DNA of 20,000 nt from an uncultured virus (IMG/VR IMGVR_UViG_3300030109_002585) (Duplodnaviria; Heunggongvirae; Uroviricota; Caudoviricetes): the IMG/VR virus record IMGVR_UViG_3300030109_002585, one strand, 5' to 3'. Made by a program: the position numbers and the translations under genes. Shown piece after piece: positions 722-17,554 of the stretch; the first letter of the stretch is position 1, and every line of letters starts with the position of its first letter. The notes under the pieces are model-generated. The model was not told where the DNA came from. It saw only the letters and a list, made by a program, of their open reading frames with translations, and did no database searches.

Positions 722-743
722 AAAAAAATAAAAAAAAGAGAAA
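722..743 (-). terminator. T-tract terminator (minus strand)
   Basis: AAAAAAATAAAAAAAAGAGAAA on + strand, similar to the tract at 297-312. Confidence 0.5.
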
Positions 744-1198
744 CGCCGCCTACTCCAACACTCGAATCACCGCTTCATCAGTTTCCCGCCAATTCGCCAT
801 GGCTCCTTGGACTCTGTTTACTTTTTGAAGACTTACAACGCATGTTTCGGCTTTGTCTCTCTATGGTTTATTCCGGCTTACGCCATAGGAATGTAAAAGG
901 TGTTGGACGGGCTATCTTTTGGATTCCCGCATTGTGAGTGGATTATCTTGTACCACTAAGTTTGAAAGTGCGCTATGGCATTTCATATATGAGGTCACAA
1001 ACTACACAATCTATTCATTGACAGTCAATCAATGCCCTTTTGGGGAACATAGGTCAAGAGCCACTATTCTAACTCATTTGAGCATCGAATAATGGTTAAA
1101 CTCGCCACCACAGCGATTAGTGTATGCCTTACTCCCTTCCAAGAGCATTCGGCCACCAACTTATCCCAAGAACCCGCTAAAGTCGCTTGAGACAATAA
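740..1198 (-). ncRNA. Candidate ~460-nt structured non-coding RNA
   Basis: No ORF of 60 aa or more. GC-richer than its flanks, bounded by E3/TATA and a T-tract like the neighbouring genes, with several potential helices. Confidence 0.45.
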
Positions 1199-1210
1199 TA
1201 AGCACATAAT

Positions 1211-1286
1211 ACCCCTATATAGGGTCTTTCAAAGTTAATACCATATGGTTTGGTAGGTCACTTTGATGATGACCGGTACGAACCAT
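1211..1286. promoter_or_regulatory. Repeated element E3
   Basis: CCCTATATAGGGT, CAAAG 1230-1234, palindrome 1240-1249, imperfect right stem 1247-1260/1270-1284 with CTTTG loop. Confidence 0.7.
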
Positions 1287-3483: not shown

Positions 3484-3522
3484 TTTATAGGGTTGCACAA
3501 AGTAGCAACCATATGGTACTAT
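3484..3522. promoter_or_regulatory. Repeated element E6
   Basis: TTTATAGGGT, stem GGTTGC 3491-3496/GCAACC 3505-3510 around CAAAG, palindrome 3508-3517. Right arm TGGTACTAT 3514-3522 complements ATAGTACCA 3686-3694. Confidence 0.75.
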
Positions 3523-9658: not shown

Positions 9659-11680
9659 ATGAAGTGGCCTAGTGATTATCTTGGATTATTTATTATTCTA
9701 TCTGATGATAAAAGCACTAAGCAAATGCTTAGAATCAAAAGAGATGAAGATGCAAGAACTAGCACCGAAAGAAAATTTGTTGAAACTTTTGTAAGAGAAA
9801 TGAGTCCATATGTAGGAGAAACTGATTTTGATACAGATGCTTTTGATATAGATGACTACTTAGAAGAAAAGAATATTCTTGATAATCTTTTTACTATAAG
9901 AAATGCTAACACTACTGTTGCTCAAAGCGATGTAATTAACACAATAGAAGATAATATAGTAAAATTAGTTCAAAATATTGAAAATAGGTTAGGAAGAAGT
10001 AAATTCGATAAGGTAGTATCACAGACAAGAGAGGGAAAAGAAGAAATAAAGCCTCTTCTTATTGATATTCAAACTCAATTAGGGAAGTCAACAAAGGACC
10101 AAAGAGAAAAATTCCGAAATAGGTTTCTAAAAGGTAAAAAATCCTTAGATTTAATCAAATTGGCTGAAGAAAATCAAGATAGGATTACAGTAAGTAACTT
10201 TTCTAACCCAGAAAAAGTAAATATTAACAAATCTTTGCTTAAAATTACCATTAAAGGTAGTGCTTTAGAGAATAATGAAGCCACAGACTTAAAAAACGCC
10301 GCTAAAAATAAAAACTTTGTTGTAAATATGTCAGGAAAAGAATTAATTTTGAAAAAAATATTTAATTTTGCAGAAATTAACAATAAAATGAAGATTAAAA
10401 ACATTATGAACGAAATCTCTCCATTAATATTAGAAAAAGATAAACAATTAGAAGGAAAAGCGATAACTGTTGTAGTTGACCACTCACATTTAAGAAATTT
10501 TCTAATTGAAGAAGATAAAACTCTGAGAGATTTTGATTCAAGCGCACAAATTGAAGTTAAAACTGAATTTGACTTAGTAGCGGAAGAAGATATTAACGAA
10601 GCAAGAATAAAAGACTACTTTGCACTCCTATTACTCTCGGAAAACCCAATAGTTACGGGATATTTGACTGATTTTAAGATTAATGATAAAGAAATCTATA
10701 ATGTTATTTTAAACGGACCCAAAAACAAGAAAACATACAAGTCTTCTTTATATTTAACTAAGGTTCTAACTAATCCTAGCACTCAAAACATATTTGAGGA
10801 TGCTATGAAAAATATAGTTAAAGAAGAGGTTCTCCCTGAAAAAATGTATAGAGAATATATGAGACAACAGGGTAATTGGAAAGTAAATTACAAGGGTAAA
10901 AGAACACCTGATAGAACACCTAACACAGAGGCAGGTAAACAATACCTACAAAATTATGATGACTTAACTGCTAAAGGTACATTAACTATTCCTTTAATGA
11001 GATTCTTAAAAGAAGAGAGAAGAGTCAATTTTCCAGAAGGCTCATATGAAATATTAAATCCTGAAGCCGTTACTTCTGCCCAAATAGTAATACTTACTAA
11101 GAGAAATAAAAGAGTGGATGCTCTGCTAGAAAAACCAAGAACACAAAAACTATACAAAAGATGGCTAAAAGATAATAATATTGCAGACAGCAGAGAAGCC
11201 AAAAAGGGGCGTTTTGCTCCTTCGGTCCCGAAGGTTGAAGGTCTAAATCTAGAAAATGAAAGTAAGTTTGTGCAGACAGTATTCTCTATTATGGATGGAG
11301 GACTACAATCTTTCTTAGGTTCTAGAACAGAATTACCGAAACTTTTTGGAGCAATTAATATCAGAAATTCTCTGAAAGTTTACTACCATACCATTAATGA
11401 TATGACTAATGTTGATGTCAAATCAGCAGTAGTGAAGGTCGATAAATTATCAAAAGATTCAAAAGCAAAAAAGCAATCGCTTCTATCAGCAGTGAAAGAC
11501 CTTAGTGACAAATTCAACGAAGGGCTGATTCAATTTAAGCAATCATTTACTGAAGAACTAAAGAAAAGACTGAAAGATATAGAAGAAAATCCCAATAATT
11601 ATCTAACACTATACAAAGAAAATAGGTTCAAAAAACAATTAATTCTATTCAATTTATTCGATAAGAGGGATGATTCATGA
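9659..11680 (+). CDS. Large hypothetical protein (673 aa)
   Basis: Long ORF with AGGAGG RBS. No catalytic motif recognised. Confidence 0.9.
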   Translation: MKWPSDYLGLFIILSDDKSTKQMLRIKRDEDARTSTERKFVETFVREMSPYVGETDFDTDAFDIDDYLEEKNILDNLFTIRNANTTVAQSDVINTIEDNIVKLVQNIENRLGRSKFDKVVSQTREGKEEIKPLLIDIQTQLGKSTKDQREKFRNRFLKGKKSLDLIKLAEENQDRITVSNFSNPEKVNINKSLLKITIKGSALENNEATDLKNAAKNKNFVVNMSGKELILKKIFNFAEINNKMKIKNIMNEISPLILEKDKQLEGKAITVVVDHSHLRNFLIEEDKTLRDFDSSAQIEVKTEFDLVAEEDINEARIKDYFALLLLSENPIVTGYLTDFKINDKEIYNVILNGPKNKKTYKSSLYLTKVLTNPSTQNIFEDAMKNIVKEEVLPEKMYREYMRQQGNWKVNYKGKRTPDRTPNTEAGKQYLQNYDDLTAKGTLTIPLMRFLKEERRVNFPEGSYEILNPEAVTSAQIVILTKRNKRVDALLEKPRTQKLYKRWLKDNNIADSREAKKGRFAPSVPKVEGLNLENESKFVQTVFSIMDGGLQSFLGSRTELPKLFGAINIRNSLKVYYHTINDMTNVDVKSAVVKVDKLSKDSKAKKQSLLSAVKDLSDKFNEGLIQFKQSFTEELKKRLKDIEENPNNYLTLYKENRFKKQLILFNLFDKRDDS

Positions 11681-16185: not shown

Positions 16186-16195
16186 GGTGATTATT

Positions 16196-17554
16196 ATGGT
16201 AAATCCTACTACTGAAGAATTGGAAGAAGCCGAAGAAATCATGGGTAATATAGTTCAAATATCACAGGAAGAGGATGCAGAAACGAATAAGTTAGAAGAG
16301 TTAGGTATTAAGTTAAAGGGAATAAATGACTATGTTATGTCTGATTATGAAGCAATAACTAACTTATCCAAGAATCTAAACATTAATGCGAGTGATGCTA
16401 GAAAGCAATTAAATACATTCCCTTCAGAATATATTGTTGATGGTCAGAATATTCCAGACTTAGTGAGAAAGATGCGTAAAGCAAGAAGAAAACTAAAAGG
16501 CGATTCTAGAATGAGAATGGCTAAAACTATTGATACAGTTATTGAGGGATATGCAGACCATATAAACAAATGTATTGATTCTATTTATTGGATAACTCCT
16601 TACAAAATTCCACTACTTAAAATGAGATTTAATGAGAAAGATTTATCCAAATTAAATAAGATAACTGATGTTAAAAAGAGAAGAGATGTAGTTGATTCTC
16701 TTTGTAAGTTATGGGAAATTGATTTAAAAAAGACAGGAATGGTATATGGCACTGATTATGCTAAATTGGAAAAAGAATCTAGAATAGCAAAGAAAGAGTT
16801 TAGAAAAGAATTGAAAGATATTTCTGACCAATCATTAATTAAATCAAAGAAAGAAAAGTCATTAGACTTCATTTTAAAGGCAATATGCGAAAATCCCGGA
16901 ATTGGAATAGGAAAGATTCATGACTTAATGCCAAGTAATTTACATAAAGCAAATTCAACTAATACTATTTCTAAAATGGTTAAAAAACTAGAAGTAAGTA
17001 ATATAAATGGTTCTTATTATAAAATGCCTAATGAATTAAAAAAGAATGTTTGGGCTTATACTGCGGCATTTATTGATTCAGACGGCTATATTACTATGGA
17101 TAGAAACCATAACCCAAGAGTGGGATTGGTAGCAACAGGAGAAAGAGGGAAGGCATTCATGAATGAAATGCACAAATCTATTGGTTTCGGTAAGTTACAT
17201 CTAGACCAAAAATCCCCTCAAGATACACGGCCTGTTAATCGTCTAAACTTTTATTCACAAGCAGATGTAGTCAATCTATTGACTAAGTGCTTACCGCATT
17301 TCAGACTAAAGAAGGGTAATGCTGAATTATTATTAGAATTAATTCGTATGAAAAAGTCGTACAAGAAGGCTGATTGGTATAAGGGTCGTTGTGAAGAAAT
17401 ATTCAAGTTAATGAAGTGGGAGAATCACAAAGACCATGTAGGTTTTGATTTCCATAAAGAAGGAATATATTTAGATGATATTACTAAATTACAGGGTAAC
17501 TGTAAGATGTCTGTTATGGATGAGTTAGAAGGTATTGGAGGTATGATAGTATGA
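16196..17554 (+). CDS. Helical N-terminus + winged-HTH-like domain + single LAGLIDADG domain protein
   Basis: YTAAFIDSDGYI motif near 17057-17092 with downstream LLTKCLPHFRLKK. HTH-like ILKAICENPGIGIGKIHD...TISKMVKKL. AGGTGA RBS favours ATG 16196. Confidence 0.8.
   Translation: MVNPTTEELEEAEEIMGNIVQISQEEDAETNKLEELGIKLKGINDYVMSDYEAITNLSKNLNINASDARKQLNTFPSEYIVDGQNIPDLVRKMRKARRKLKGDSRMRMAKTIDTVIEGYADHINKCIDSIYWITPYKIPLLKMRFNEKDLSKLNKITDVKKRRDVVDSLCKLWEIDLKKTGMVYGTDYAKLEKESRIAKKEFRKELKDISDQSLIKSKKEKSLDFILKAICENPGIGIGKIHDLMPSNLHKANSTNTISKMVKKLEVSNINGSYYKMPNELKKNVWAYTAAFIDSDGYITMDRNHNPRVGLVATGERGKAFMNEMHKSIGFGKLHLDQKSPQDTRPVNRLNFYSQADVVNLLTKCLPHFRLKKGNAELLLELIRMKKSYKKADWYKGRCEEIFKLMKWENHKDHVGFDFHKEGIYLDDITKLQGNCKMSVMDELEGIGGMIV

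Follow-up and report, generated by a model that had tools for sequence, protein, structure and literature searches.

An apparently stand-alone RNA gene, probably an enlarged relative of manA, in a likely virus of marine archaea

A unit on the minus strand of the uncultured viral sequence IMGVR_UViG_3300030109_002585 (IMG/VR; Caudoviricetes), at positions 722–1249 of the 20,000-nt stretch analyzed here (the window), is almost certainly a structured RNA gene. Our favored account of the unit as a whole, which we hold with reasonable confidence, is that of an enlarged manA-type RNA that stands alone as a gene and acts in trans. The unit is free of open reading frames (ORFs), carries its own promoter motif and T-run, and is flanked by two minus-strand genes, 373–621 and 1360–1683. 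A first-pass annotation of the window had described a structured noncoding RNA in a minus-strand cassette of its own, and the covariation, the promoter motif and the T-run agree with that description. The same annotation had assigned the RNA to an unknown class, which did not hold, as manA (Rfam RF01745) was the best match in Rfam and shares with the RNA its helix plan and motifs.

A homolog search, suggested at first pass, found relatives of the RNA in viral and metagenome contigs from the ocean, in 20 places besides the window (21 in all), and covariation was seen among them. The neighboring protein 1808–2344 led to four IMG/VR contigs of 84–96 kb, three of which contain DNA similar to 885–1296 (68%–89% identity) in another position and orientation relative to the homolog of 1808–2344. 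One degenerate pattern gave 16 metagenome loci, of which 15 align and one (L029) does not. A full-length covariance model, R1, which was built from the relatives of the RNA without L004 and L050, picked up these two divergent members with 58.3 and 43.5 bits, respectively, and ties the window to them with E values of 7e-18 and 1e-13; on the core of the window itself R1 scored 362 bits, but the window is among its building sequences. The relatives are therefore L001–L004, the 15 aligning pattern-found loci and L050. Together, the 21 places represent 16 distinct core sequences in five clades, with 11 sequences in A/B, three in C, one in D (L004) and one in E (L050). Left out of the counts were L022, whose 5′ end is cut, and L029, which has no homology, as well as the core duplicates L024, L026, L027 and L028 (identical to L001, the window, L002 and L003, respectively). 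The pattern matches L006, L007, L010, L011, L029, L037, L048, L051 and L053–L058 were rejected as chance matches. No match to 600–1400 was found by blastn (“distant” setting) in 50,697 phage records, no relatives of the neighboring protein 1360–1683 were found in viral contigs, and a scan of genome contigs with the family pattern gave no matches, that is, no cellular or prophage copy at that stringency.

Conservation begins at a fixed TGTC (1194), spans 304 nt to an ACCUUU (~891) and is followed by clade-specific 3′ parts. The proposed structure of this core was compared, in two alignments, with controls in which the pairing partners were slid by 1–3 columns. In alignment A2 (MAFFT, 14 distinct sequences, structure written by hand), 93.0% of 1061 cells were in standard pairs, versus 31.8%–41.8% in the slid controls, and two-sided changes were observed at 24 pairs, versus 2–7; the observed value was reached by none of 500 shuffles on four of five measures and by 461 of 500 on the fifth, the count of further pair types. 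In alignment A6, which was model-fitted and comprised 16 sequences and 77 base pairs, 94.0% of the cells were paired (31.9%–41.3% when slid), two-sided changes were present at 46 of the 77 pairs (6–12 when slid), and none of 500 shuffles reached the observed value on any of the five measures. Some features of these data count against our account. The structure was derived from the very sequences that were tested, most of the two-sided changes separate a few deep clades, alignments A3 and A6 lean towards the model, and P1 is badly aligned, with 60%–70% of its cells paired.

The four helices that had been proposed for the unit are all in the sequence at the places given for them, and three are backed by relatives. 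The helix 1061–1069/1087–1095 corresponds to P6, with two-sided changes at six of its nine pairs, and the helix 932–937/995–1000 is the outer stem of P8, which across the clades reads UUGUGA/UCACAA, ACAAUG/CAUUGU, and UCGUGC/GCACGA. The enclosed AGTGG/CCACT is P8b, in which G-C is replaced by A-U in six sequences. The helix 861–866/883–888 is also present, but it sits in the invariant clade-specific 3′ extension and so shows no covariation, while 754–761/900–907, likewise present, competes with the well-supported P2 (1156–1160/902–906) and can be kept only as an alternative pairing. In P2/P2′, 100% of the cells are paired and four of the five pairs have two-sided changes, the helix occurring as GUUGG/CCAAC, GUCAG/CUGAC, GGUGA/UCACC, and GAGUA/UACUC. 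In the minimum-energy folds, the outer stem of P8 appears for clades D and E and for seven of the 10 distinct A/B sequences, and a proximal P8 pairing is favored for clade C. RNAalifold returned the proximal P8 pairing, but in 13 of 16 sequences it contains a U-U mismatch, and it is absent in clades D and E; it was kept for clade C alone. The coordinates of all of these elements, and of the flanking signals, are collected in Table 1.

Table 1. Elements of the RNA unit and its flanking signals in the window
Feature	Position	Strand	Description
Palindrome ACCATATGGT	1240–1249		Heads the cassette; also heads the RNA gene in relatives
TATA-like element CCCTATATAGGG	1209–1225	−	Purine-rich GAAAGA directly upstream; putative archaeal-type core promoter
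Conserved core RNA (304 nt)	891–1194	−	P1, P2, P3, P4 enclosing P5-P6-P7, P8, P9, P2′, tail ACCUUU
P3 hairpin	1126–1153	−	manA-like GUGGCCGAAU...GUAAGGC; aligned to manA positions 22–60; helices 3 and 4 100% paired
P6 long hairpin	1061–1095	−	CCAUUAUUC/GAAUAGUGG plus inner stem; enlarged relative to manA; 95.7% of cells paired
P7 three-way junction	1011–1052	−	P7a CCC-CAAAA-GGG nearly invariant; P7b CAUUGAU...GUCAAUG; helices 9–11 98%–100% paired
P8 domain	932–1000	−	Outer stem UUGUGA/UCACAA around P8a (964–985) and P8b (937–957)
P9 hairpin	907–930	−	GCGGG...CCCGU, inner AUC/GAU; helices 15 and 16 ~97% paired; two-sided changes at 5 of 8 pairs
P2′ CCAAC	902–906	−	Closes the core by pairing with P2 GTTGG (1156–1160)
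3′ extension (~145 nt)	744–890	−	Hairpin 861–888 and GUGUUGGA (754–761), complementary to P2′
T-run UUUCUCUUUUUUUUAUUUUUUU (RNA-strand reading; 22 nt)	722–743	−	Putative termination signal

The 3′ extension was found in clade A only, with a partial likeness in clade D, and in the window the region 715–905 folded no better than shuffled sequence (z = +0.70). A segment complementary to P2′ is present in the extension of both clades A and D, with differing letters (GUGUUGGA versus UCCAACAC; GGUGAA versus UUCACC); it lies at 754–761 in the window, facing 900–907, and at ~2325–2335 in L004, facing ~2425–2432. Clades B, C, and E lack it. Through this segment, the 5′ strand of P2 could be displaced, or two molecules could pair.

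The absence of a long ORF from these ~460 nt, also reported at first pass, was confirmed. The longest ORFs within 740–1198 have 57 aa (plus strand, 919–1092) and 47 aa (minus strand, 1064–1207), and all three frames of the RNA strand contain many stops, which are of mixed type, so that an alternative genetic code would rescue no frame. It is scarcely credible that the unit is instead a decayed or frameshifted protein gene of the plus strand, assembled from the successive ORFs 842–937, 919–1092, and 1092–1190. Relative to the window, runs of insertions or deletions are not multiples of three in five of five cases in L015, eight of nine in L002, and 12 of 16 in L004, which indicates that the RNA region does not code for protein, and the substitutions lack codon periodicity (40, 34, and 37 over the three phases in L002). 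Codon-type conservation, named beforehand as the mark of a gene, was thus seen neither in the indels nor in the substitution phases. A protein gene would find some support in the antisense strand, which is stop-free over the whole core (101 codons) in L020, L021, and L030; with the flanks, the open frame reaches 107–128 codons in L030 and L020 (L020 512–898, L030 536–859). However, in L020 and L030 the frame lacks a Met, extends across the promoter and has no Pfam or PHROG counterpart, and neither the window nor clades C, D, and E keep it open.

It is also very improbable that the conservation concerns DNA or replication alone, as in an origin, a primer RNA, or a packaging or recombination site, with no functional free RNA. 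The cassette does lie among shuffled small cassettes with conserved palindromes, and some phage replication origins use promoter-driven structured transcripts. Nevertheless, the compensatory changes keep G-U on one strand only (pairs 54/75, 118/142, and 189/196), which fits RNA and not duplex DNA, and the core contains neither iterons nor AT-rich unwinding elements. Moreover, the region appears abundant in RNA libraries, and the RNA family to which it is probably homologous has solved RNA structures.

By Rfam's own criterion the RNA is not a member of manA. A covariance search of the whole window, proposed at first pass, gave no family at gathering score, ROOL, GOLLD, HEARO, OLE, and raiA included, and no tRNA or tmRNA was detected in the window; under permissive thresholds manA came out best, for the window and for each clade that was searched by itself. 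Nevertheless, the core very probably belongs with manA as a divergent and enlarged relative, instead of forming a class of its own. With the manA model (192 positions, gathering cut-off 55.2 bits) searched in this permissive way, the window scored 17.3 bits at 936–1156 of the minus strand (model positions 22–183; E 0.055, then 0.023), the three clade C loci scored 28.3, 26.2, and 26.2 bits (E 3e-4 to 1.4e-3), L004 of clade D scored 50.4 bits (E 4e-12), and L050 of clade E scored 48.1 bits (E 4.4e-10). In the relatives the match covers model positions 1–192 (E 4e-12, 4.4e-10, and 3e-4). For comparison, the true manA RNAs of P-SSM2 and S-CREM1 scored 181.6 and 96.6 bits, none of 14 control genomes gave a match, and the clade B loci L009, L015, and L018 had no manA match at E up to 5.

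The resemblance to manA extends to the order of the helices (P1, P2 around P3, P4 with P5, P6, and P7, P8, P9, and the 3′ tail) and to several motifs. The P3 motif GUG.C.GAAU...UAAGG is shared (model consensus GUGaCUGAAUAA...UAAgG; GUGGCCGAAU...GUAAGGC in the window), as are the P5 loop GUGGUG (UGUGGUG in the window, varying within its family to GUUGUA and AGUAGUU), the GGU junction after P4 (GUAGUU in the window) and the ACCUU tail after P2′ (aCcuu in the model, ACCUUU in the window). Complementarity between the P5 loop and a P7 loop may be a further common trait, and both RNAs are found in the sea and are carried by viruses. In the model alignment, the outer stem of P8 in manA falls on the TTGTGA/TCACAA helix (ACAAUGG/UCAUUGU in L004), and the P9 hairpin of L004 was aligned to that of manA. 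The differences are mostly of size and context. The core has 304 nt versus ~192, with a long P6, a three-way P7 bearing a near-invariant CCYCAAAAGGG hairpin, and a three-way P8, and some clades add the 3′ extension of ~145 nt. Unlike manA, the window RNA has a promoter and stop signal of its own and does not lie in a 5′ UTR, and whereas manA is carried by cyanophages and gamma-proteobacteria, a virus of archaea is the probable carrier here.

A separate new RNA class, in which the likeness to manA would be convergent or due to chance (short motifs on an unrelated fold), has a small but appreciable probability, and several results lean that way and thus away from our account. The manA gathering score was reached by no member of the family, and the match of the window, at E 0.023, is not significant alone. 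R1 found neither of the two true manA RNAs (P-SSM2 and S-CREM1), with default filters or with filters off, and R2, a 63-position covariance model of the 5′ domain built from the family of the window RNA alone, missed the P-SSM2 copy (one of two found); the larger core likewise suits a new class. On the other side, R2 located the P3 element of the S-CREM1 manA, in register and where homology would place it (20.6 bits, E 4e-5), and two independent lineages, L004 and L050, reach 48–50 bits over the whole 192-position model and are both tied to the window through R1. To these are added the helix order, the P3 motif, the P5 loop, the GGU junction and the ACCUU tail, all held in common with manA, and kinship with manA remains the reading that we prefer.

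Among other known RNAs, ROOL and GOLLD are large “ornate” RNAs associated with viruses and prophages that assemble into RNA-only multimers and occur in tRNA arrays, the setting also of the S-CREM1 manA. The window RNA resembles them in being apparently free-standing, highly structured, and virus-carried, but it is smaller and has no tRNA nearby. The wcaG RNA (RF01761) is another orphan structured RNA of marine phages and adjoins manA in S-CREM1; no match to it was found in the window or its relatives. In the literature searched, no paper combined magroviruses and manA, and the titles or passages of the papers that cite RF01745 did not describe an enlarged form.

The window RNA is very likely a stand-alone gene acting in trans. 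In all clades, a T-run and then a new copy of the ACCATATGGT...CTTTG...TATA motif come between the end of the core (or of the 3′ extension) and the gene that follows, whose beginning varies among the clades. In L001, the RNA cassette is located elsewhere and on the other strand relative to its neighbors, and exactly one copy of the RNA is present in each of three near-complete related genomes. Only a slim chance is left to a cis-regulatory leader or riboswitch, the role under which Rfam annotates manA, with the T-run as a regulated terminator that controls the minus-strand gene 373–621. Such a role would be in line with the T-run that follows the RNA, with the position of the true manA of P-SSM2, which ends 16 nt ahead of purL, and with PMC2864571, where manA, seen in 5′ UTRs, was put forward as a candidate riboswitch. 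It is hard to reconcile with the full promoter motif that separates the RNA from differing downstream genes in every clade, or with the moved and inverted cassette of L001. Furthermore, the annotated manA of S-CREM1 (record 10215–10429) lies flush between tRNA-Leu and tRNA-Asn genes, in an array shared with wcaG and abiF RNAs, and this location within a tRNA array does not fit a 5′-UTR role. Finally, in one RNA library, run X1, the contig of the RNA had ~25 times the depth of the sole contig from a neighboring gene.

A transcript had been expected from the unit, and contigs on the core were found in all four marine RNA libraries examined, which come from four studies (814–1168, 911–1161, 930–1145, and 927–1097). 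The RNA is present in these libraries, and the depth of its contigs hints at high abundance: in run X1, the word depth was 359 for the contig of the RNA versus 14 for that of gene 1808–2344. Contigs of this run were nearly identical to the window (one difference in 355 nt and none in 548), so that the virus itself was present there, and the RNA contig reached into the 3′ extension as far as 814. The parts of 1–2500 free of contigs in the four runs (1–813, 1169–1761, and 2310–2500) are uninformative either way. As a point against our account, the contigs carry neither strand nor ends, and no transcript boundary was mapped. A second contig of run X1, at 1006–1136, had 13 differences in 131 nt and continued into the sequence of a related family member, which indicates that more than one variant of the RNA occurred in the same sample.

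From these data, transcription would start ~21–23 nt downstream of the TATA-like element, at the conserved U|GUC, and would end at the T-run. The product would be a free-standing structured RNA of ~450–470 nt, from ~1194 to ~722 on the minus strand, whose first 304 nt would represent the enlarged manA lineage. As the covariation shows, it folds into the manA plan, with P1, with P2 around P3, P4 (bearing P5–P7), P8, and P9, and with the ACCUUU tail. It would not be the leader of the next gene and would most likely act in trans, as a stable and abundant RNA particle.

Whether such particles involve self-association can be approached through the known behavior of manA. A 2026 preprint (bioRxiv 10.64898/2026.07.01.735769) reports in vitro assembly of canonical manA RNAs into decamers and a 60-mer cage, mediated by the kissing-loop contacts L5-L7′ and L8-L9′. 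We tentatively suggest, as a possibility on the doubtful side, that the window RNA may self-associate through the complementary loops of P5 and P7b. Complementarity between these loops is present in every member, with 5 bp in clades C and D (four sequences) and in L023 and 4 bp in the other 10 A/B sequences, and the letters differ: UGGUG/CACCA in clade C, UAGUU/AACUG in clade D and, by eye, UAGU/ACUA in clade E (L050). This suggestion is weakened by three considerations. A 4-bp match with G-U allowed is near chance (p ~0.4 per loop pair, a rough estimate), the register of P5/P7b is not conserved in clades A/B, and the self-assembly of manA was seen, in the cryo-EM preprint (bioRxiv 10.64898/2026.07.01.735769), just in RNAs <200 nt and in vitro. 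Here L5-L7′ is only provisionally equated with P5/P7b. Other loop contacts, of the P5 loop with the 3′ tail and of the P8b loop with the inner loops of P8, showed no consistent complementarity.

The carrier is likely a group-B magrovirus, a virus of marine archaea; passages of PMC5434244 assign this group to Marine Group II archaea. The large terminase subunit (TerL) of the window is 95% identical to that of three genomes of 84–96 kb, which are 91%–100% complete by CheckV, while its best cultured match, in Bacteroides phages, is just 27% identical. Through these three genomes and TerL, the carrier shows the group-B trait of a genome of ~100 kb with a caudoviral structural module. All three related genomes encode a family-B DNA polymerase split in two frames (PF00136; 551–556 aa and 297–305 aa), in a region that the window does not reach, and a split DNA polymerase is described for magroviruses in PMC5434244. 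They also all encode a Cpn60/TCP1 chaperonin (155–159 bits) and two ATP-dependent DNA ligases (PF01068). The split polymerase, the chaperonin, and the two ligases together make up the group-B signature as given in those passages (PMC5434244), and point to the magrovirus assignment. An MCM-like match in the related genomes was weak (16–19 bits, under the cut-off). Weighing against the assignment, Pfam searches of the three genomes found none with an archaeo-eukaryotic primase (PF01896, PF09250) or with Rad51/RadA (PF08423); according to the same passages of PMC5434244, profile-profile searches were needed for most such magrovirus proteins. In two of the three genomes, the second piece of the polymerase contains one in-frame TAA (G002 71024–71482, G003 44810–45265).

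For 15 years manA has been filed as a putative riboswitch without a ligand, and the RNA-only cages of the preprint (bioRxiv 10.64898/2026.07.01.735769) are an in vitro result with no biology attached. What is described here is an enlarged form with its own promoter and stop signal, one copy per genome and apparently strong representation in ocean RNA libraries. If our account is correct, the manA family would be a trans-acting RNA particle rather than a gene-specific switch, it would reach past its known carriers (cyanophages and gamma-proteobacteria) to a probably archaeal virus, and natural size variants would be at hand to study the effect of extra arms on assembly; the Rfam cut-off for manA would miss a whole branch of the family. 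A bolder extension, which we consider unlikely, is that the same RNA fold serves in bacterial (cyanophage) and archaeal (magrovirus) viruses, has in the archaeal viruses expanded to 300–470 nt and turned into an abundant free-standing transcript, and forms an RNA-only shell or ring in infected cells. Assembly geometry might then be set by the extra arms P6, P7, and P8 together with the 3′ extension, whose GUGUUGGA is able to take the place of the P2 5′ strand and might bind P2′ in a second molecule. If this were so, it would be a virus-encoded RNA compartment or scaffold independent of the host's domain of life.

Regarding the signals around the RNA gene, the 17-mer ACCCTATATAGGGGTAT occurs exactly twice in the 20 kb (expected 0.01), at 1209–1225 on the minus strand and at 1730–1746 on the plus strand, before gene 1808. 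The promoter arm that the first-pass annotation had seen as shared between the RNA and gene 1808 is therefore identical at both sites, but would be better read as an archaeal TATA/BRE element if the carrier is a magrovirus. In the five clades alike, a CCNATATA-type element is located 21–23 nt upstream of the conserved TGTC, and under the same condition CCCTATATAGGG would be an archaeal TATA/BRE core promoter. A bacterial −35/−10 promoter was dropped, given a sigma-70 scan without this site and the gene content of the relatives. That scan showed no enrichment in the window (10 versus 13.6 expected) and did not list the promoter of the RNA gene; likewise, the hairpin-terminator scan showed none (three versus 2.4 expected) and did not list its stop. 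The terminator type that the first-pass annotation had called common to the RNA and the protein genes amounts to a bare T-run, and the scan listed no hairpin terminator there. An archaeal TATA/BRE promoter together with a bare T-run terminator would explain why both scans came out empty.

The palindrome ACCATATGGT is possibly the binding site of a regulator. It has 15 matches on both strands at up to one mismatch, versus 0.33 expected, and the composite ACCATATGGT-N-CTTTG-N-CCNANATA heads three consecutive minus-strand cassettes (234–268, 654–687, and 1216–1249). In the first 3.6 kb, (T/A)ACCATATGGT(A/T) stands upstream of six cassettes on both strands (258–268, 677–687, 1239–1249, 1690–1700, 2557–2567, and 3507–3517), followed by CTTTG and a TATA-like element, and this looks like a binding site for a single regulator of the entire small-gene block. 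A strong hairpin, GUGGUAGUAGUC...GACUACUACCAU, is located at 682–720, directly past the T-run of the RNA gene, and overlaps the palindrome of the next cassette; a hairpin at 1250–1290, likewise past a T-run, resembles it. Farther along the window, directly after the terminase gene, a 455-aa ORF (16187–17554) has a weak match to HNH endonucleases at residues 290–403 (PHROG 5046, E 1e-5).

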